From a virus (lineage: Duplodnaviria > Heunggongvirae > Uroviricota > Caudoviricetes), in IMG/VR virus record IMGVR_UViG_3300011560_000039: DNA of 24,717 nt; one strand, 5' to 3'. A model generated the notes under the pieces. It saw only the letters and a list, made by a program, of their open reading frames with translations, did not search any database and was not told where the DNA came from. Below, piece after piece: positions 11,756 through 20,200 of this stretch (within the stretch, counting starts at the first letter, position 1; the number at the start of each line of letters is the position of its first letter). The position numbers and the translations under genes are program-made.

Positions 11756-13825
11756 ATGAAAGGTAATATTCTTGGGGATATCCGAGCTGAACATGACGAA
11801 AAGATGTTGGAAGCTTCATTTTGGCAAACAACTGATTATAAAGCTCTTCTCGAATCCTACGATCGATGCATCATTGTTGGCCGCAGAGGAACAGGAAAAA
11901 GTGCTCTGGTGCATATGCTTTCCAAACATTGGCATGCTAAGCCAAAAACCTATGTGATGACTATTAGTCCGGTTGAAGAACAAATTATTGGATTAAGGGA
12001 TGTTATTTCTTTATTTGGTGAAAATTACTTACATATAAAAGCCGGTAGCAAGTTAGCATGGCGATATGCTATTTATATGGAGCTGCTTTCTGAGATCGCA
12101 AGTCATTACAAGATGAAAAACGATCTTGACTACAAAAGTGTAGAGTCGCATTTATTATCTTGGGGACCGAAGAGACAAAATATAAGTAGCAAAATAAGAA
12201 AAAAATTGAACGCTATTCTCGATGATAACAAAAATATAAAACCAGCTACAAGAATAGCCGAATTATCCGATAAATTTGAACTTGACTTATTGGAAGAGGT
12301 GATAGAAGAAGCAATTTCGAAGTCAAATAATCAATTTGTTATTTTTGCTGATAGGCTTGATGAAGGCTATACACCGGATAATCTTGGTGTTGCAATAGTT
12401 GATGGTTTCATTCAGGCTGTGATTGATATAAAACAAAATATGAATGAAAAGGTTATTGCCTTTGCATTTGTTAGAGATAATATTCATCGAGCCATATCAA
12501 AAATGGACCCTGATTTTACTCGAAATATTGAAGGGCAAGTACTGAGATTACATTGGGATGAATATAACTTGTTTAATCTTGTATGCAATAGAATGAGGGT
12601 CGCTTTTAACTCAACCATTGAGAACAACACGAGGGTGTGGAATGCTTACACCGCAAATGAATTACAGTCTAATACCGGTTTTAAAGAAACATTGAAACTG
12701 ACTCTATATAGGCCAAGAGATATTTTGGTTTTGTTAAATAATGCATTCTTGCGAGCAAACACACATGATCGTAATCGTATTGTCATTGATGACATTCAAG
12801 CAACAGCGAATACTATTTCACAAAATAGACTCAATGATTTGTTAAAAGAATATGAGAATGTATTTCCTGCATTAGATATATTTACATCGCAATTTGCTAA
12901 TAGCAAACCTTACTACAGTGTTTCTGAAGCGTCATCTAAGATACAATATGCCCTTGATCTCAATGGCGTTATTGACAAGATGAAAATGCAGGATTTACTT
13001 CTTTTTGAAGGGCCAATCCAGGTGATTCAACGACTTTACAGTGTTGGATTTATTGGGTTGTATAACCAGCAGTCATCTTCATATGTATTTTGCCATGACG
13101 GTAAGGAACCTGAAAAAGAATTTACACCAGATTCAAAATTGCTATTGCATCCATGCTACTGGCTAGCATTAAGTGTTCATGAATCAGAGATGACTCCCGA
13201 TGCTGCTGATGATATTCATGATGAATATGATATTGAGGTCAGCTCTGTTTCCGAAGAGCAGAGGAAACAACGAATCGGTTCGTTGCTCCAAGAACTACAT
13301 AATATACCTGAAGGACCTGAAGGTGCTGTCGATTTTGAAGCATGGGCGCTCAAAACTATAAAGTTACTATTTGCTACGAATTTAACGAACATTGAGTTGC
13401 ATCCCAATAAAAATGGGTTGCAGCAAAGAGATATTATAGCGACAAATATAGCTGACACTCCAGTTTGGAAGAGAATTCTGACAGATTATCAGACACGGCA
13501 AGTTGTTTTTGAAGTGAAAAACTATAAAACATTAGGTGCTGCAGAATATAGACAGGTAAATTCCTATTTGTTTAAAGACTATGGGCGGATAGCTTTTATC
13601 ATAAATAGAGATCACACAGAGAATTTAGAAAAACATAAAGAGCTTACGTGGGTAAAAGAAATTTATGATAATCATAATAAATTAGTTGTGAAGTTACCCT
13701 CTAAGTTCCTTGAAAGGCATCTGTCAAAAATGAGAAGCCCGCAAAAACATGACGAAGTTAATAAACAATTAGGTAAACTGCTCGATCAGTACATAAGGGT
13801 CTATTTAAATAATAAATGTAAGTAA
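11756..13825 (+). CDS. Cargo protein, 689 aa: N-terminal P-loop NTPase (Walker A GRRGTGKS; Walker B-like VIFADRLDE) with a C-terminal PD-(D/E)xK-like nuclease motif (D..x24..EVK); candidate anti-phage defence or abortive-infection protein
   Basis: Long ORF with RBS; markedly AT-rich compared with flanking Rac genes; motifs read from the translation; occupies a variable position between the replication and nin/Q modules; not recognised as a named family. Confidence 0.85.
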   Translation: MKGNILGDIRAEHDEKMLEASFWQTTDYKALLESYDRCIIVGRRGTGKSALVHMLSKHWHAKPKTYVMTISPVEEQIIGLRDVISLFGENYLHIKAGSKLAWRYAIYMELLSEIASHYKMKNDLDYKSVESHLLSWGPKRQNISSKIRKKLNAILDDNKNIKPATRIAELSDKFELDLLEEVIEEAISKSNNQFVIFADRLDEGYTPDNLGVAIVDGFIQAVIDIKQNMNEKVIAFAFVRDNIHRAISKMDPDFTRNIEGQVLRLHWDEYNLFNLVCNRMRVAFNSTIENNTRVWNAYTANELQSNTGFKETLKLTLYRPRDILVLLNNAFLRANTHDRNRIVIDDIQATANTISQNRLNDLLKEYENVFPALDIFTSQFANSKPYYSVSEASSKIQYALDLNGVIDKMKMQDLLLFEGPIQVIQRLYSVGFIGLYNQQSSSYVFCHDGKEPEKEFTPDSKLLLHPCYWLALSVHESEMTPDAADDIHDEYDIEVSSVSEEQRKQRIGSLLQELHNIPEGPEGAVDFEAWALKTIKLLFATNLTNIELHPNKNGLQQRDIIATNIADTPVWKRILTDYQTRQVVFEVKNYKTLGAAEYRQVNSYLFKDYGRIAFIINRDHTENLEKHKELTWVKEIYDNHNKLVVKLPSKFLERHLSKMRSPQKHDEVNKQLGKLLDQYIRVYLNNKCK

Positions 13826-13959: not shown

Positions 13960-14095
13960 GCAGGTTGCAAGGAAAGACCTCTGCGAGGTACGAATCCGAA
14001 CCGACCAGACGGAGGTCGCTGTCTTCACAGCTTACGAACTTGGGGAGTAAGAGGACCAGCGGGGAGAAATCCCCGCAACCTCTGATGTATTATGC
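13960..14095. other. GC-rich structured island inside an otherwise AT-rich ~650-bp non-coding gap; candidate structured ncRNA or gene remnant
   Basis: Local hairpins GCGGGGA-GAAA-TCCCCGC (GNRA-type loop), ACCTC-TGC-GAGGT and GACC-AGACGGA-GGTC; no ORF of 60 aa or more on the + strand. Confidence 0.35.
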
Positions 14096-14513
14096 ATCCT
14101 CAACGCAGCCACAGTTAACCTGATTGGCGGGTTTACTTCATCTGTAAATATTTTTATAAAAATAATGCCCACGCACAGCATAAAACAAAAAGTATTACAG
14201 ATAAAAAAGGAACGTAATGTACAGATTTGTTGTTTTCCATATTTACTCACCTTAATATGATTAACCCTGATAGGGCTGTTATTTCAGCGGTTTTCAAATG
14301 AGATATTATGGTGATCTGACAAATTTGCATAACATTAAAATTTAATTTGTTTAACCGCTTTTAATAATAAGCGTTGTTTGTATCCCAGCAATCTGTTGTT
14401 TGGTCTTTATTCCATTAAGGTGGGGGCTTTACACTGGAACCAGTTTATTTATACTTTATACGTCAGCCTGAACAACTGGCATCTGCTGCACTGCGCCATC
14501 GAGAGATTGAGAA

Positions 14514-15113
14514 ATGGCGCATATACAACTGGTCAAACAAACTTCTTCTGGTTTACTTCTCCCGGCGACGCCGGAGAGTTGCGATTTTCTGCATCAAATC
14601 AAAATAGGTGAGTGGATACACGCAGACTTTAAGCGTGTGCGTAACTACGCATTCCACAAGCGTTTTTTCAAACTCCTGCAACTGGGATTCGATTACTGGA
14701 CTCCGGTCGGTGGGGCGATCACGCCTCGCGAACGAGAACTGCTGTCTGGTTTCGTTGATTACCTGTGCGAATCAGTTGGTCGGGAACACACGCCAGCCCT
14801 GAGTGATGCCGCAGAGCAATACCTTAACACCGTTGCGACTCGTAGAACCCGGGATACGGCGTTGCTAAAGTCGTTTGAGGCTTTCCGCGAGTGGGTAACC
14901 ATTCAGGCCGGATTTTACACCGAGCATATTTATCCGGACGGTAGCCGTGGGCGTCGGGCAAAATCCATCGCTTTTGCGAATATGGACGAAGTCGAGTTTC
15001 AGCAGGTTTATAAATCTGTACTGAATGTGCTGTGGAACTGGATTCTGTTCCGTAAATTCTCCTCTCAGGAGGAAGTTGAAAATGTGGCCGCACAACTACT
15101 GGAGTTTGCGTAA
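14514..15113 (+). CDS. nin-region phage protein, DUF1367/YbcN-like, 199 aa
   Basis: MAHIQLVKQTSSGLLLPATPES...AAQLLEFA recalled as a YbcN-type nin-region protein; family name from memory only. Confidence 0.6.
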   Translation: MAHIQLVKQTSSGLLLPATPESCDFLHQIKIGEWIHADFKRVRNYAFHKRFFKLLQLGFDYWTPVGGAITPRERELLSGFVDYLCESVGREHTPALSDAAEQYLNTVATRRTRDTALLKSFEAFREWVTIQAGFYTEHIYPDGSRGRRAKSIAFANMDEVEFQQVYKSVLNVLWNWILFRKFSSQEEVENVAAQLLEFA

Positions 15114-15403
15114 TGGTGAATTTACGTAAAGCGGCTAAAGGCCAGATGTGCCAGATCAGAATCCCTGGCTACTGCAATCACAATCCCGAAACCTCTGTGC
15201 TGGCGCATTACAGGCTGGCGGGGACGTGCGGAACAGCGACAAAACCACACGATATGCAGGCGGCGATAGCCTGTAGCTCATGCCACGATCTAATCGACGG
15301 GCGGGTAAAAACCAGCGATTACACCAAAGAAGAATTGCGCCTGATGCATGCTGAAGGGGTTTTTCGCACACAAGAAATCTGGAGAAAGAAAGGTCATTTA
15401 TGA
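15113..15403 (+). CDS. DUF1364 (YbcO/YnaK-like) Cys/His-rich putative nuclease, 96 aa
   Basis: LRKAAKG.MCQIRIPGYCNHNPETSVLAH...ACSSCHD pattern; ATG overlaps the upstream stop (TAATG). Confidence 0.7.
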   Translation: MVNLRKAAKGQMCQIRIPGYCNHNPETSVLAHYRLAGTCGTATKPHDMQAAIACSSCHDLIDGRVKTSDYTKEELRLMHAEGVFRTQEIWRKKGHL

Positions 15404-15942
15404 TTTACCCAACGAATACAGGAAAAAGCGGAGAACACCTTCGCCTCACCACGCTGGAAAGTGTCTGGATTCAGGGAAAACTACGTATGTGGGGGCGCTG
15501 GTCGTATATTGGCGGTGGCAGGTCAGGGAATATGTTCAATCAGTTGTTGGCATCCAAAAAACTGACGAAAACAGCCATTAATGAAGCCCTGCGCAGAATG
15601 AAAAAAGCGGGAATAGAGAAAGCTGAGCTGGAAGCGTTTTTGCGAGAGATGATCAACGGCAAGCAAAAGAGCTGGCTGGCGCATTGTACTGATGCAGAGG
15701 CGTTATGTATTGATCGAGTCATAAGTGAGGTGCTGGCAGAGCATCCAGGATTGATTTGCATTCTCCGGCAACGCTATGAAGGGCGGGGGATGGCTAAGCG
15801 CAAAATGGCTGAATTGCTAAATGATGCACACCCAGAGTGGTGTTTTAGCACATGCGAAAAACGGATTGCTAATTGGTTAGCTGTTGCTGAGTATGCCCTA
15901 TATATTCCCATGCGTGAATCATTTGCTGAGAAAATGGCTTGA
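15400..15942 (+). CDS. Putative late-gene antiterminator Q (phage 82/21-type), 180 aa
   Basis: Position immediately upstream of a strong terminator and the lysis cassette; Cys-containing C-terminal region; ATG overlaps the upstream stop. Confidence 0.6.
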   Translation: MIYPTNTGKSGEHLRLTTLESVWIQGKLRMWGRWSYIGGGRSGNMFNQLLASKKLTKTAINEALRRMKKAGIEKAELEAFLREMINGKQKSWLAHCTDAEALCIDRVISEVLAEHPGLICILRQRYEGRGMAKRKMAELLNDAHPEWCFSTCEKRIANWLAVAEYALYIPMRESFAEKMA

Positions 15943-16022
15943 TTTCTTACGTATAAACTGCTTCAATTTTGCTATGCTTCGCAAAGCTGTATCGCGAGGC
16001 GGATTGCAGACATGGACATCGT

Positions 16023-16050
16023 AAAAAAACCGCTTAATGCGGTTTTTTTT
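16023..16050 (+). terminator. tR'-like rho-independent terminator downstream of Q (AAAAAAACCGC-TTAAT-GCGGTTTTTTTT)
   Basis: Hairpin plus T8 run about 80 nt after the Q stop; the late promoter and qut site are expected in 15943-16022. Confidence 0.75.
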
Positions 16051-16370
16051 ACGTCAGGAAAGCAGGGGAGAATGCTGCTAGTTGGGCAACTGGTCTTTCT
16101 GCTCCAAATTATAACAGAGACCAGTTATAGTTTCGGTGCTGTGTTTTTTTTACAATATTGTGATAACACATTGCTGGCGGGAGTTTTGATATTTCTTGGC
16201 AGGGGCTGATGATGCGTTATCCTGATGTCGTCAACTCATATAAAATGAGATGAGAGATCATTGCAGGGTGGTTTGTAATTCGCTGTTTAGCGGGACAATA
16301 TGTTGTCTGATACAAGACACCCGACGCCTCAGATTACTATAATAAAGACGAAGCATCCTTTGTATTAACC

Positions 16371-16396
16371 AACCGCCTGTTTAGGCGGTTCTTTTT
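16371..16396 (+). terminator. Second rho-independent terminator (AACCGCC-TGTT-TAGGCGGTT, then CTTTTT)
   Basis: Inverted repeat plus T-run read directly. Confidence 0.6.
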
Positions 16397-16987
16397 GGGC
16401 TGGTTTATTGTATGCCAAATGATTATTAAAAAGGTTGTGTTAATAACAAAATCCGAAATAATATGCCTGCATATTTTTATCTTGCTTATATTCTGCATAT
16501 TGTGCATAGCAGGCTCATCCCTGCAATCAAAACTGTATGATGAGTATTTTTTGTTTTCCTTTTTTCCAGTCATCTGATGATGACCTGCTTCTTTTTAATC
16601 CGGATCGACATCAGTTTTTTAAGATAATTCCTGCGAGTTATATGCATAAATACCACAAACTCCGCATTTTATGTGGTTGGGAGTTGCCGGGCGCGCAGTG
16701 AGTTTGCTAAGAAAACTCCTGCATGGTGAATCCCCCTGTGCGGTGGGGTGATACCATTAACCTTTTCTGTCGCCGACAGGTATCACGAACATTTTGTTCA
16801 CCGGGAGGCACCCGGCACCATGCACTTCAATAGATTCTCTCCACATTATGGATATTCTTTCAGAATATCCCACGCAGACTTTGTGTAAATGTTAACAAAT
16901 GTGCGTTTTATTTGATCTGATTCGCTGTTTGAGCGTCCAAAACAACGGTATATATAATCCTTTACTATATGACATATGTGAGGAAAA

Positions 16988-17416
16988 ATGGGTTTTCGTA
17001 GCGCATCAATTCTTACGTTGATTATTAGTGGGATTATTATCGGGTGCACTGATGCTGTATCGACAAATTATCATGACCGTACATCATATTACTCCGATAA
17101 AGCAATAGAGACACAGTATGTGAGTTCATCTGAACGTACTTCTGATGTTAGTGAGGATATCCGTCTGTATGCCCATCAAATCAAGAGCGCCATCGAAAAA
17201 CAGTTCGGGGATGCGAGTAAGTATTCAGGAAAAGAGTGTACACTGAGAATGCATATGGCCCCGAATGGCCTTCTACTGGAGGTTAAAAGAGAAAGTGGAG
17301 ACCTCGATTTATGTCGTGAAGCGATGAATGCGATAAAGAATGCTGATATACCTGCCCCCCCTTCGCCGGAAGTATATAAAGTATTTCAAAATGGGGTGCT
17401 GGATTTTAAACCCTGA
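16988..17416 (+). CDS. Lipoprotein with TolA C-terminal domain III homology (moron), 142 aa
   Basis: Signal peptide plus lipobox IIIGC; C-terminus QIKSAIEKQFGDASKYSGKECTLRMHMAPNGLLLEVK...IPAPPSPEVYKVFQNGVLDFKP parallels the recalled TolA C-terminus (...GKTCTLRIKLAPDGMLLDIK...IPKPPSQAVYEVFKNAPLDFKP); GAGGAAAA RBS. Confidence 0.8.
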   Translation: MGFRSASILTLIISGIIIGCTDAVSTNYHDRTSYYSDKAIETQYVSSSERTSDVSEDIRLYAHQIKSAIEKQFGDASKYSGKECTLRMHMAPNGLLLEVKRESGDLDLCREAMNAIKNADIPAPPSPEVYKVFQNGVLDFKP

Positions 17417-17566
17417 TATTTATTGTTTTGTAATAAACGGTTTCGGCTTAGGTTTGTTCTGACACAGCTACGGCACTGAGCTAAATTTAGCGGATAGTCA
17501 GCTCTGAGCCAGTGGCGGACGTAACAACTACTATTGCTGAGATTTTAATGGATTGAGGAGCAAGAA

Positions 17567-17962
17567 GTGGGATTAAAGAAAATCGTTATGTTGACTTTTT
17601 GGGTCGGTTTTGTTGCGGGATGCACACCTTTACACCCTTCAGATTGCCACAAAACTACTGCTACAGGTAGTTGCAGTTCAGGACGCTGGGATGATCAGGA
17701 TGAATGGGGGGCGCAAGCGCGGGGAATCAGAGCTGCAATTAATGCCAAACTTGATGAGCCGCATAACTGGAAAGGGAAAAAATGCAGGTTGCATATGGAA
17801 TTCTCTCAGGATGGCACGGCGTTAAAAATATCTACCAGTAACGGTGATAAAGCCTATTGCGAAGCGATAAAGTCCGCAGCTCATAAAGCCAAATTTCCGG
17901 CCTTCAACAATCCGGAAGTCTACAGAGATTTTCAGAAATCTGGCTTTGACATGCGAGGTTAG
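17567..17962 (+). CDS. Second, divergent TolA domain III-like lipoprotein (GTG start), 131 aa
   Basis: Signal peptide MGLKKIVMLTFWVGFVAGC with lipobox; C-terminal GKKCRLHMEFSQDGTALKIS...FPAFNNPEVYRDFQKSGFD is paralogous to the upstream gene; GAGGAG RBS before GTG. Confidence 0.75.
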   Translation: MGLKKIVMLTFWVGFVAGCTPLHPSDCHKTTATGSCSSGRWDDQDEWGAQARGIRAAINAKLDEPHNWKGKKCRLHMEFSQDGTALKISTSNGDKAYCEAIKSAAHKAKFPAFNNPEVYRDFQKSGFDMRG

Positions 17963-18087
17963 CTCTTCAATTACTATATCTCATTCATAGCAAACTGACA
18001 GATTTGATGATGTTCTATATACGAAACCTGTGATGTCAAGTCTGAGCTAATACAAATAAACATAATATCAGAGAAATACATTTTATT

Positions 18088-18109
18088 AGCTCGCTACGGC
18101 GAGCTTTTT
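18088..18109 (+). terminator. Rho-independent terminator between the moron lipoproteins and the holin (AGCTCGC-TACG-GCGAGCT, then TTTTAT)
   Basis: Perfect 7-bp stem plus T-run. Confidence 0.7.
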
Positions 18110-18213
18110 ATATTGCATCGTCTCCAGCATATATATCAATTAAGGCTCTGATTGATGTGTCTGAAAGCCTACACATAATAACTATGCCATCCGTTCCGTG
18201 CGGAGGTGAGGCT

Positions 18214-18429
18214 ATGAAATCCATGGACAAAATTTCAACAGGCATTGCCTACGGCACCTCCGCAGGCAGTGCTGGCTACTGGTTTTTACAGTTGCTCGAT
18301 AGAGTAACTCCGTCACAGTGGGCTGCAATCGGTGTGCTGGGTAGTCTGGTATTTGGCCTACTGACGTACCTGACAAACCTTTATTTCAAGATTAAAGAAG
18401 ATAAGCGCAAGGCTGCGAGAGGTGAATAA
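18214..18429 (+). CDS. Phage-21-type pinholin S with dual start MKSM (antiholin/holin), 71 aa
   Basis: [26 protein letters not shown]...[19 protein letters not shown]; GGAGGTGAG Shine-Dalgarno; the 90-aa track ORF extends upstream. Confidence 0.85.
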
Positions 18430-18757
18430 TGCCTCCANNNNNNNNNNNNNNNNNNNNNNNNNNNNNNNNNNNNNNNNNNNNNNNNNNNNNNNCCTTGCCA
18501 CTGTCGCCAGACAAATTAACCCGTACATCAAAGTCGATATACCGGAAACAACGCGCGGCGCTCTTTACTCATTCGTTTACAACGTGGGTGCTGGCAATTT
18601 CAGAACATCGACGCTTCTTCGCAAAATAAACCAGGGCGATATCAAAGGCGCATGTGATCAGCTACGTCGCTGGACATATGCTGGCGGTAAGCAATGGAAA
18701 GGTCTCATGACTCGTCGTGAGATTGAGCGTGAAATCTGTTTGTGGGGTCAGCAATGA
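18429..18757 (+). CDS. SAR endolysin (phage-21 R-type lysozyme), interrupted by an assembly gap; N-terminal part missing
   Basis: C-terminal 87 aa [27 protein letters not shown]...ICLWGQQ; expected ATG at 18429 (MPP...) overlaps the holin stop but is out of frame with the C-terminal segment across the N-run. Confidence 0.8.
18438..18492. other. Assembly gap (55 N)
   Basis: Run of N; the frame mismatch across it shows the true length is unknown. Confidence 0.99.
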
Positions 18758-19215
18758 ACAGAGTAACCGCGATTATCTCCGCTCTGGTTATCTGCATCGT
18801 CGTCTGCCTGTCATGGGGTGTTAATCATTACCGTGATAACGCCATCGCCTACAAAGAACAGCGCGACAAAAATGCCAGAGAACTGAAGCTGGCGAACGCG
18901 GCAATTACTGACATGCAGATGCGTCAGCGTGATGTTGCTGCGCTCGATGCAAAATACACGAAGGAGTTAGCTGATGCGAAAGCTGAAAATGATGCTCTGC
19001 GTGATGATGTTGCCGCTGGTCGTCGTCGGTTGCACATCAAAGCAGTCTGTCAGTCAGTGCGTGAAGCCACCACCGCCTCCGGCGTGGATAATGCAGCCTC
19101 CCCCCGACTGGCAGACACCGCTGAACGGGATTATTTCACCCTCAGAGAGAGGCTGATCACGATGCAAAAACAACTGGAAGGAACCCAGAAGTATATTAAT
19201 GAGCAGTGCAGATAG
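18754..19215 (+). CDS. i-spanin Rz, 153 aa
   Basis: N-terminal transmembrane segment and coiled-coil-like body; ATG overlaps the endolysin stop (ATGA). Confidence 0.85.
18974..19156 (+). CDS. o-spanin Rz1 lipoprotein embedded in Rz (+1 frame), 60 aa
   Basis: Lipobox VVVGC and a proline-rich body ([15 protein letters not shown]); entirely inside Rz. Confidence 0.85.
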
Positions 19216-19246
19216 AGCTGCCCATATCGATGGGCAACTCATGCAA

Positions 19247-19540
19247 TTATTGTGAGCAATACACACGCGCTTCCAGCGGAGTATAAATGCCTAAAGTAAT
19301 AAAACCGAGCAATCCATTTACGAATGTTTGCTGGGTTTCTGTTTTAACAACATTTTCTGCGCCGCCACAAATTTTGGCTGCATCAACAGTTTTCTCCTGT
19401 CCAATTCCCGAAACGAAGAAATGATGGGTGATGGTTTCCTTTGGTGTTACTGCTGTCGGTTTGTTTCCAACAGTAAACGTCTGTTGAGCACATCCTGTAA
19501 TAAGCATTGCCAGAGCGGCAGAAAACAACATTTTTTTCAT
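19247..19540 (-). CDS. bor: Bor/Iss-family outer-membrane lipoprotein, 97 aa
   Basis: MKKMLFSAALAMLITGCAQQTFTV... with lipobox LITGC; opposite strand to the lysis genes, as for lambda bor. Confidence 0.85.
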   Translation of the reverse strand: MKKMLFSAALAMLITGCAQQTFTVGNKPTAVTPKETITHHFFVSGIGQEKTVDAAKICGGAENVVKTETQQTFVNGLLGFITLGIYTPLEARVYCSQ

Positions 19541-19984
19541 CTTATTATCCTGCATTGTTAAAAACGGCAGAATCCTATGTGACAACAATTAAACGATAGT
19601 TAAATGGATTGATGAAAATTAAAACTATATAGGTGGATGCTCAGCCTATTGGAGGAGGGGGGGGGCACTCAGAATCCTGTGGAATGAAATAAACCGCTCT
19701 ATCTGTTCATTACCCTTTTAGCAGCGCTGTATCGTCGCCGTATTCCCGCATTAACCATGACCGTAGCCCGACGGGGAATTCCTTCTGCGTGAGTGTGCGG
19801 GAATAATCAAAAACGATGCACACCGGGTTTTTACCGCGTTTATGGTTCGCGGGGGTGTCCCTCATGCTCGCCAGTCCTGTGCGGGGGTGGAAGAAACAGG
19901 ACGTGTATTCAGGTCTGTGTGACTGTGGTCGCAAGACTTTTGTCGTTCAGCTATTAAATCCCATTACGAAGTAGACCAGAACGG

Positions 19985-20200
19985 CCAACGGGTCCTTTCC
20001 GGCGATCCGACAGGTTACGGGGCGGCGACCTCGCGGGTTTTCGCTATTTATGAAAATTTTCCGGTTTAAGGCGTTTCCGTTCTTCTTCGTCATAACTTAA
20101 TGTTTTTATTTAAAATACCCTCTGAAAAGAAAGGAAACGACAGGTGCTGAAAGCGAGCTTTTTGGCCTCTGTCGTTTCCTTTCTCTGTTTTTGTCCGTGG
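19985..20200 (+). other. Lambda-type cos site in prophage configuration: cosN 12-nt cohesive end GGGCGGCGACCT at 20020-20031 and cosB R-elements CGTTTCC at 20072-20078, 20133-20139 (inverted) and 20173-20179
   Basis: ...CCGACAGGTTACG|GGGCGGCGACCTCGCGGGTTTTCGC... matches the recalled lambda right-end/left-end junction; directly upstream of nu1. Confidence 0.85.

Follow-up and report, generated by a model that had tools for sequence, protein, structure and literature searches.

Late transcription in lambda, which is organised as Q-PR'-tR', and in phage 21 follows a shared plan of a regulator gene, a promoter, a short transcribed region, an intrinsic terminator and lysis genes downstream, with the 6S RNA of lambda being 194 nucleotides (nt) long. 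Lambdoid phages also carry morons, in the definition of Juhala et al. (2000), with bor and lom of lambda as examples. In Gifsy-1, the small RNA (sRNA) gene isrK lies directly downstream of antQ, the gene of a Q-like antiterminator, and its promoter yields both a short terminated RNA and a readthrough messenger RNA (mRNA) (Hershko-Shalev et al. 2016, PMC4825925). The prophage sRNA family STnc100, which is related to PasD, occurs in Stx2 phages immediately 3' of stx2B (Zhu, Shabalina & Storz 2026, bioRxiv 10.64898/2026.05.13.724894; PMC12370729), and its copies are transcribed in uninduced EDL933, one of them having been confirmed by northern blot (PMC5331693). Here, we compare with these systems positions 15943–18213 of a 24,717-nt stretch of Caudoviricetes DNA (IMG/VR record IMGVR_UViG_3300011560_000039; the whole stretch is referred to as the window). 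This region follows a gene of the DUF1133 family, the candidate Q gene, ends at the holin gene, and contains three hairpin and T-run sites (T1, T2 and T3), two RNA elements and two genes for TolA-like lipoproteins.

The window represents an intact Rac-type lambdoid prophage of E. coli, in which the region probably makes up the leader of a Q-dependent late operon together with its terminator-separated cargo. We delineated its anatomy, the families of its proteins and RNAs, its mosaic boundaries and the conservation of a promoter–terminator slot (Table 1). The gene of a putative Q21-family antiterminator is followed by a conserved candidate promoter of the extended -10 type and, about 65 nt further on, by T1. 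In the lysogen, this post-Q promoter would yield only a short terminated RNA, like IsrK in Gifsy-1; on induction, the antiterminator would load onto polymerase at the same promoter. By analogy with the lambda, 21 and 82 paradigm, and with work on the Gifsy-1 relative in which AntQ interferes with termination (PMC4825925), the modified polymerase would then pass all three terminators and continue into the holin, lysozyme and spanin genes and beyond. The exchangeable cargo between T1 and the holin comprises a decayed STnc100-like RNA with T2, an STnc100 copy that has no terminator, and two lipoproteins of the outer-membrane type bearing TolA domain III, and T3 would stop transcription begun inside this cargo from reaching the holin.

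A preliminary description of the region, made from the sequence, had presented it as a classic moron arrangement, with autonomously expressed genes insulated by three terminators that Q-modified polymerase reads through. The Q-dependent operon with terminator-separated cargo remains the best explanation; the part assigned to two of the terminators has to be revised, as T2 appears to be an sRNA relic and T3 a generic element. All three hairpin and T-run sites are present at the positions first given for them, on the + strand and inside 2.3 kb. Terminator-like patterns in 14000–20000 number nine, against 5.7 ± 2.6 in shuffled sequences, which is not significant alone, and a rough scan of the entire window, on either strand, gave about nine compact hairpins that are rich in G+C and followed by a T tail, T1, T2 and T3 among them. 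Comparative data are stronger evidence for terminator function than folds or counts, and the sites are taken in turn with their relatives in other prophages.

The DUF1133 gene and the slot downstream of it

The DUF1133 protein matches the Pfam family of that name (E-value of 4e-107) and reaches 25.1 bits with PF06530 (Phage_antitermQ), just under the cut-off of 26. Its homologues in a large protein collection carry both Pfam matches, precomputed PF06530 matches included, and the names given to them include, in some sources, antiterminator, antitermination protein Q and late gene regulator. When a profile of 14 homologues was run against every Protein Data Bank (PDB) sequence, phage 21 Q (Q21) was the sole significant match (PDB entries 6P18 and 6JNX; E-value of 1.7e-5, 27.5 bits), which spans the N-terminal W..G.L..WG.W.Y motif and residues 95–178. 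Q21 was also the top match of the single sequence (E-value of 0.3), and a Q-like HHpred result for DUF1133 has been noted before (PMC8136144). The gene is situated 3' of the DUF1367 and YbcO genes and 5' of the lysis genes. The protein thus resembles Q21 in its family overlap with PF06530 and in its profile match, and differs in being filed as DUF1133, with PF06530 below the cut-off. Judged by these matches, it is accepted as a relative of the Q21 family, in which sense the earlier label Q is upheld, and by analogy it would act in antitermination.

Homology to sister prophages (about 90%) runs through the DUF1133 gene and a further 59 nt and breaks at 16001. Beyond the break, T1 (A7-CCGC-TTAAT-GCGG-T8) folds with -15.9 kcal/mol (z-score of -4.0, with 0 of 200 shuffles as good). 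A pattern scan for terminators detected T2 and T3 and missed T1, we think since the A7 and T8 arms of T1 pair and leave no free T tail; as these arms are symmetric, T1 could be active in both directions. Every close variant has a hairpin with a T-run at the same distance, built on one of three unrelated stems (CCGC/GCGG, CCCGCC/GGCGGG and CCACC/GGTGG).

The slot was surveyed in the window and in 33 further DUF1133 loci, giving 34 loci from more than 12 enterobacterial genera with proteins 52–99% identical; a scan of viral contigs for DUF1133 relatives reached only those of at least 93% identity, and the divergent loci were reached by an alignment-based genome scan. A terminator lies 42–115 nt past the DUF1133 stop codon in 31 of the 34 loci. 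The hexamer TAnGCT occupies a fixed position in 27, about 60 nt ahead of the terminator; TGn precedes it in 18 of these, and some 25 conserved nt come after it. From the end of the hexamer to the end of the terminator stem the distance is 51–74 nt in 22 loci and 92–100 nt in four. The combination of TGn and TAnGCT has the appearance of an extended -10 promoter. The motif reads TGcTATGCT in the window (15970–15978), which places the predicted start at about 15985 and would give an RNA of about 66 nt with T1 as its 3' end.

In two loci, L105 and L108, one from E. coli and one from Salmonella, which encode a 184-amino-acid variant of the DUF1133 protein, the slot is occupied by isrK (Rfam, 67–76 bits; gathering threshold of 50), which begins 33 nt past the stop codon. 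As at antQ-isrK of Gifsy-1 (PMC4825925), where AntQ is presumably a DUF1133 protein, the DUF1133-family gene of these loci has, beginning within about 33 nt of it, a promoter that leads into a short RNA with a Rho-independent terminator. The window differs in that its own post-Q region, at 15976–16049, reaches the isrK model at 21.6 bits only, below the gathering threshold. Because the terminator is found in 31 of 34 loci and the hexamer in 27, and because isrK occupies the same slot in relatives, T1 is a well-supported candidate for the terminator of the tR'/IsrK slot and a good putative equivalent of tR'; the proposal that a tR'-like site lies directly after Q is in this way extended to a slot conserved across the DUF1133 loci. 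The unit shares its order of elements with those of lambda and phage 21, whereas the terminated RNA predicted in the window, at about 65 nt, is of a different length from the 6S RNA.

In the Gifsy-type loci, isrK overlaps a match to the c4-a1b1 target and has a P1-type C4 antisense RNA after it (L105, 3575–3776; L108, 3588–3768 and 290–476), so that the post-Q RNA of these relatives seems to belong to an immunity module of the C4/ant type. Downstream of isrK, such loci carry this C4-type RNA, and orf45-anrP is placed there in Gifsy-1 (PMC4825925), whereas the cargo of the window consists of sRNA relics and TolA-like genes.

RNA elements upstream of the lipoprotein genes

T2 (ACCGCC-TGTTT-GGCGGT followed by TCTTTTT) folds in a 51-nt context with -13.9 kcal/mol (z-score of -1.6, with 10 of 200 shuffles as good). 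It closes a conserved noncoding unit that sits, in other prophages, after a cluster of transfer RNA (tRNA) genes downstream of Q; a tRNA search found no such genes in this interval of the window, unlike the sister prophages. The 3' part of the unit, from about 16205 to 16396, corresponds to a structured RNA resembling STnc100, in decayed form. In intact copies, the 3'-terminal 175 nt or so comprise a long-range helix, two or three internal hairpins, among which TCGGG-AGGCA-CCCGA is invariant, an AU-rich linker and a terminator of the form ACCGCC-loop-GGCGGT-T8, whose stem is constant and whose loop is variable across copies. RNAalifold predicted 33 pairs from 11 intact copies, compensatory double changes occur at seven of these, and the long helix occurs in the variants GGTG/CACC, GGCG/CGCC and GACG/CGTC. 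The long-range helix, a GGGAGGCACCC hairpin, the AU-rich linker and the terminator are features shared with STnc100 and PasD. The Rfam STnc100 model aligns with an intact copy over its full length at 22.9 bits, below threshold, and a covariance model built from the intact copies, termed R1, matches the window at 16205–16396 with 45.8 bits and cross-matches the STnc100 copy of the window with 28.5 bits.

Some 19 nt are missing from the copy in the window, the 5' arm of the invariant hairpin among them, and its long helix has a mismatch. Together with the R1 match and the covariation, these losses show T2 to be the terminator that remains of an STnc100-like RNA gene now decayed, and the part first proposed for it, as an insulator of a lipoprotein moron, finds no support. 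An identity with PasA, PasC or PasD was rejected: BLAST of 15943–18213 and of the intact elements against the PasD2, PasA and PasC regions of E2348/69 returned nothing, and PasA is also ruled out by its opposite strand. A mini open reading frame (ORF) of 14 codons (MMRYPDVVNSYKMR) lies at 16209–16253, with a GGGG run before it. Diverged copies of the noncoding unit retain roughly the first eight codons (MHYPDVVN, MHHSGVVK and MCHPDVVN), with changes at third positions, and the ORF could encode a small peptide or leader, or merely be conserved RNA sequence.

The second element is a copy of STnc100 itself, matched over the full length of the model. Its 3' hairpin, GGATATTCT-TTC-AGAATATCC, is AT-rich and is followed by CACGCAGAC with no T-run; the copy differs from those of other STnc100 regions in having lost the G+C-rich 3' intrinsic terminator of the family. 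It lies 110 nt upstream of lipoprotein gene 1 and, as this terminator is missing, transcription could continue past it into that gene. A mosaic junction falls within the element, at 16797.

Stx and other lambdoid late regions with STnc100, PasD and PasA resemble the window in carrying STnc100 elements between Q and the holin beside cargo, often in multiple or tandem copies; the cargo there is stx or nanS-p, whereas it is TolA-like lipoproteins in the window. Elsewhere, STnc100 forms tandem arrays of four or more copies that flank cargo genes. Head-to-tail arrays between Q and the holin were located in three loci (L003, 3310–4425; L097, 5440–6361; L002, 1317–1530, 3436–3609 and 4331–4793), upstream of SASA esterase genes and on either side of TolA-like genes. 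The copies in these arrays have their own strong terminator where checked (two copies in L002), and a late transcript across such an array would need to pass many consecutive terminators.

The interval 16060–16990 had been described as AT-rich and without a confident gene. Its composition is as stated (31–46% G+C, against 46–53% in the adjoining genes) and it holds no conserved protein gene, but both RNA elements, the STnc100 copy and the decayed one, had been missed. The possible small hydrophobic ORF proposed at 16419–16577 was rejected as a gene: its ATG reads ATC in L002, frameshifts interrupt it in L002 and L003 (copies of 83% and 74% identity), and a Pfam scan gave no match. A 60-nt segment (ACGGGGAT...GCATCGTCAG) that is present in L002 (3300–3360) and in L003 has been deleted from the window at 16611–16612, just upstream of the STnc100 element, which is another sign of decay in this spacer.

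The resemblance of the T2 family to STnc100 and PasD, supported by covariation, raises the possibility that T2, T3 and the T1-terminated RNA serve mainly in the biogenesis of Hfq-type sRNAs, including one from the 3' untranslated region of the lipoprotein-2 mRNA, with insulation of the holin as a by-product. PasD, STnc100 and IsrK are all expressed sRNAs of prophage late regions, and R1 also matches 18026–18114, at 21.3 bits. This last match is limited to the AU-rich linker and T3, which are generic features, while the T2 element of the window is without part of its body and no target or seed is known for these elements. We regard the sRNA explanation as rather unlikely, and it would in any case be compatible with insulation or antitermination.

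Lipoprotein cargo genes and the pre-holin terminator

Both lipoprotein genes lie between T2 and T3, as the preliminary description had it, although neither site is a terminator of their own. The 88 C-terminal residues of lipoprotein 1 (residues 55–142) align end to end with residues 334–421 of E. coli TolA (E-value of 5e-28; roughly 60% identity by a hand count on the alignment), and lipoprotein 2 matches TolA structures with an E-value of 5e-9. Both proteins hold TolA domain III (PDB entries 1S62, 1TOL and 3QDP) through its last residue, and differ from TolA in having neither domain I nor domain II and in having a lipoprotein signal peptide instead. The lipoboxes were read by eye from the translations. 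Thr occupies position +2 in both proteins, for which the E. coli lipoprotein sorting rule predicts outer-membrane anchoring, and both are accordingly predicted to be anchored there.

The start codon of lipoprotein gene 2 at 17567 aligns with the ATG of the copy on pO157 and is preceded by GGAG. Across three aligned copies (about 87% identity with pO157), the reading frame is intact from start to stop despite the nucleotide differences, which fits a functional gene. The family of lipoprotein 2 extends to Citrobacter, Enterobacter, Serratia and Klebsiella, as well as to pO157. The pO157 relative (L092, 3995–4426) adjoins a nikB relaxase remnant and the Enterobacter relative (L093, 5001–5435) is a stand-alone chromosomal gene among housekeeping-type genes, so that the family is not phage-specific.

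The sister prophages match the window up to 16001 and again from about 18201, and their content between these points differs. A module comprising half of the STnc100 copy, both lipoprotein genes, T3 and the holin (16797–18250) is common to some prophages and stands behind a different Q in phage mEp460_ev081; other prophages share 17407–18250 only, with lipoprotein 2 alone beside the holin module in H65, and pO157-type plasmids share only 17537–17965, at 87% identity. By this pattern, the lipoprotein genes are mosaic cargo, and in this respect the earlier moron reading is supported: sister prophages do not have them between the conserved flanks. Like morons, they are extra genes between conserved neighbours, absent in sisters, flanked by a promoter-like site and a terminator, and of somewhat lower G+C content. 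The differences are that their promoters are candidates by consensus, that T3 is outside the captured gene unit, and that the cargo travels with an RNA element as the module just described.

Upstream of lipoprotein gene 1 is a sigma-70-like promoter match, and upstream of gene 2 a weak promoter-like match that falls outside the sequence in common with the copies on pO157 and in Enterobacter (Table 1). On this basis, expression of the lipoprotein genes in the lysogen is plausible. Periplasmic TolA domain III reportedly causes colicin tolerance and leakiness of the outer membrane (Levengood-Freyermuth et al. 1993). Building on that effect, we tentatively suggest, while regarding it as more doubtful than not, that the lipoproteins act in the lysogen as outer-membrane decoys of TolA domain III, which would sequester the domains by which group A colicins or g3p of filamentous phages bind TolA, or else the N-terminus of TolB. 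A literature search on prophage TolA-like lipoproteins and their function found nothing relevant.

Alternatively, the lipoproteins may be true late genes, served by the Q-dependent promoter only, such that a burst of TolA domain III disturbs Tol-Pal and weakens the outer membrane before lysis. Within the late operon, the genes directly precede the holin and share its orientation, the evidence for promoters of their own is weak, the terminator-less STnc100 copy would permit readthrough into gene 1, and the leakiness just mentioned is an effect of the kind required. On the other side, the lipoprotein-2 relatives of pO157 and of the Enterobacter chromosome stand alone with no phage context, presumably being expressed independently, and a terminator between the lipoprotein genes and the holin is hard to explain in one obligate late unit. 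We consider expression as late genes only to be improbable.

This terminator, T3 (AGCTCGC-TACG-GCGAGC followed by T5), folds with -13.0 kcal/mol (z-score of -3.3, with 1 of 200 shuffles as good). Its capture together with lipoprotein gene 2 was considered and rejected, as the copies on pO157 and in Enterobacter cease to match the window well upstream of it; T3 is accordingly assigned to the phage context and not to the moron as its own terminator. The holin module shared by the sister prophages starts at about 18201–18203, and everything upstream is thus specific to the cargo. In most of the cargo classes examined, a terminator is present 47–125 nt upstream of the holin start, with at least five unrelated hairpin sequences; the holin was not located in three classes, and L045 has no such terminator at the thresholds used. 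In L051 and L072, where the cargo is different, a hairpin resembling T3 comes after it, with one A-T pair changed to G-C. T3 is therefore best described, from these comparisons, as a probable generic pre-holin terminator, and its recurrence fits a lysis cassette that is shielded from upstream transcription unless the polymerase is termination-resistant. The earlier account of T3 as a moron terminator holds for its position before the holin, which recurs, and fails for its membership of the lipoprotein-2 unit.

Prophage setting and significance

Several points weigh against the region being the leader and cargo section of a Q-dependent late operon. A -35/-10 consensus scan found no canonical sigma-70 promoter between the Q stop codon and T1, and the promoter there is thus placed by phylogenetic footprinting only. 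An Rfam scan gave no isrK match in three other Salmonella DUF1133 loci (L098, L100 and L102), the matches being confined to L105 and L108 with their 184-amino-acid variant, and AntQ should be a DUF1133 protein by its synteny with isrK, not by sequence alignment. The lipoprotein promoters are consensus-level matches that are imperfectly conserved, the -10 of the match at 16929–16958 reading TGTAAT in L002, where the copy is 94% identical. T2, with its weak z-score in the 51-nt context and its decayed element, may be without a current role. A further promoter-like site (TTGATG-16-CATAAT, 9/12 consensus) lies between T3 and the holin at 18152–18179 and, if active in the lysogen, would bypass the insulation by T3. 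The lysozyme gene just 3' of the holin is partly masked by an N run (18440–18493), which keeps the window from showing whether the lysis cassette is whole, and Rac-type prophages are frequently defective.

In an alternative explanation, the terminators are mere 3' ends of separate small units or relics, namely the post-Q RNA, an sRNA pseudogene and the cargo operon, uncoordinated with one another in a decaying prophage whose late operon is no longer driven by Q. The 19-nt deletion and helix mismatch of the T2 element, the lost terminator of the STnc100 copy and the 60-nt deletion relative to L002 and L003 would all fit, as would the defective state of Rac in K-12. The conservation of the locus speaks otherwise. 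The stretch 15900–18250 is 100% identical in many complete genomes, the arrangement being 100% identical across 2.35 kb in the records listed; at least 80% of the stretch is present in about 450 complete genomes, and the prophage is carried by about 8% of complete E. coli genomes. In EC93, the same DNA is found within a prophage adjoining ttcA that has intR, xisR, ralR, recET, kilR and sieB in its first part, and then DUF1367, DUF1364/YbcO, DUF1133, the two TolA-like genes, essD-rrrD-Rz and a complete set of head and tail genes. The same Q module, with a T1-type terminator, is also carried by phage records, vB_EcoS-666R9 among them, and the promoter–terminator slot is kept across genera. An uncoordinated set of relics is thus an unlikely account of the region, and the Q-dependent late operon is retained.

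Table 1 Features of the region and of its flanking genes, in window coordinates.
Feature	Position	Strand	Evidence and remarks
DUF1367 gene	14514–15113		
YbcO gene	15113–15403		
DUF1133 protein, 180 amino acids	15400–15942	+	Q21-family late antiterminator candidate; Pfam, PDB profile, gene order
Block conserved with the DUF1133 gene: candidate late promoter and initially transcribed region	15943–16001	+	Homology, footprinting
T1, putative intrinsic terminator, tR' equivalent	16023–16050	+	Fold statistics, comparative slot
Conserved noncoding unit, elsewhere after tRNA cluster downstream of Q	16104–16396	+	Alignments
T2, putative terminator of decayed RNA element	16371–16396	+	Pattern scan, fold, stem conservation
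STnc100-family RNA element (RF02076)	16691–16877	+	Rfam 86.6 bits, gathering threshold 47
Sigma-70-like promoter match, TTGAGC-18-TATAAT	16929–16958	+	Upstream of lipoprotein gene 1; 10/12 consensus
Lipoprotein 1, 142 amino acids	16988–17416	+	Signal peptide, lipobox IIGC, TolA domain III; PF06519, E-value 2e-23
Weak promoter-like match, CTGACA-17-TAAATT	17459–17487	+	Upstream of lipoprotein gene 2; 9/12 consensus
Lipoprotein 2, 131 amino acids	17567–17962	+	GTG start, lipobox VAGC, diverged TolA domain III; PF06519, E-value 1e-14
T3, putative intrinsic terminator	18088–18109	+	105 nt upstream of holin start codon, AU-rich stretch before it; pattern scan, fold
Phage 21-type holin (S21/EssD), first gene of the lysis cassette	18214–18429	+	PF04971, E-value 2e-35

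Other parts of the window have features of their own. At 1557–1735, there is a match of 225 bits to the Rfam model of RalA, which is the antitoxin sRNA in the type I system RalR/RalA; this fits the Rac-type identity of the prophage. In the early-right region, directly before a Hok/Gef remnant, lies an ORF of 689 amino acids (11756–13825) for which the EC93 annotation gives a Sll1717-family P-loop ATPase; it could be a defence-type cargo gene. Beyond the spanin genes, a Bor-like lipoprotein gene lies on the - strand (19247–19588); EC93 has trkG at the corresponding place, which indicates another cargo swap.

The architecture of Q, a short terminated RNA, terminator-separated cargo and lysis genes is textbook lambdoid biology and already known, and confirming it mainly tidies prophage annotation. 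DUF1133 can be treated as a Q21-type antiterminator family, and the slot of this family, with its extended -10 promoter pattern and terminator, includes a known sRNA, IsrK. The intervals downstream hold a structured-RNA family related to STnc100 and PasD that is supported by covariation, falls below the Rfam threshold and explains otherwise orphan terminators. The most interesting point is what the TolA-domain-III lipoproteins do, as they are widespread and uncharacterised cargo of prophages and plasmids. If expressed late, they would sabotage Tol-Pal to aid lysis. If instead the decoy idea, which is testable, were true, they would give colicin tolerance or superinfection exclusion by mimicry of a host receptor, and the pO157 and Enterobacter relatives of lipoprotein 2 would act likewise.

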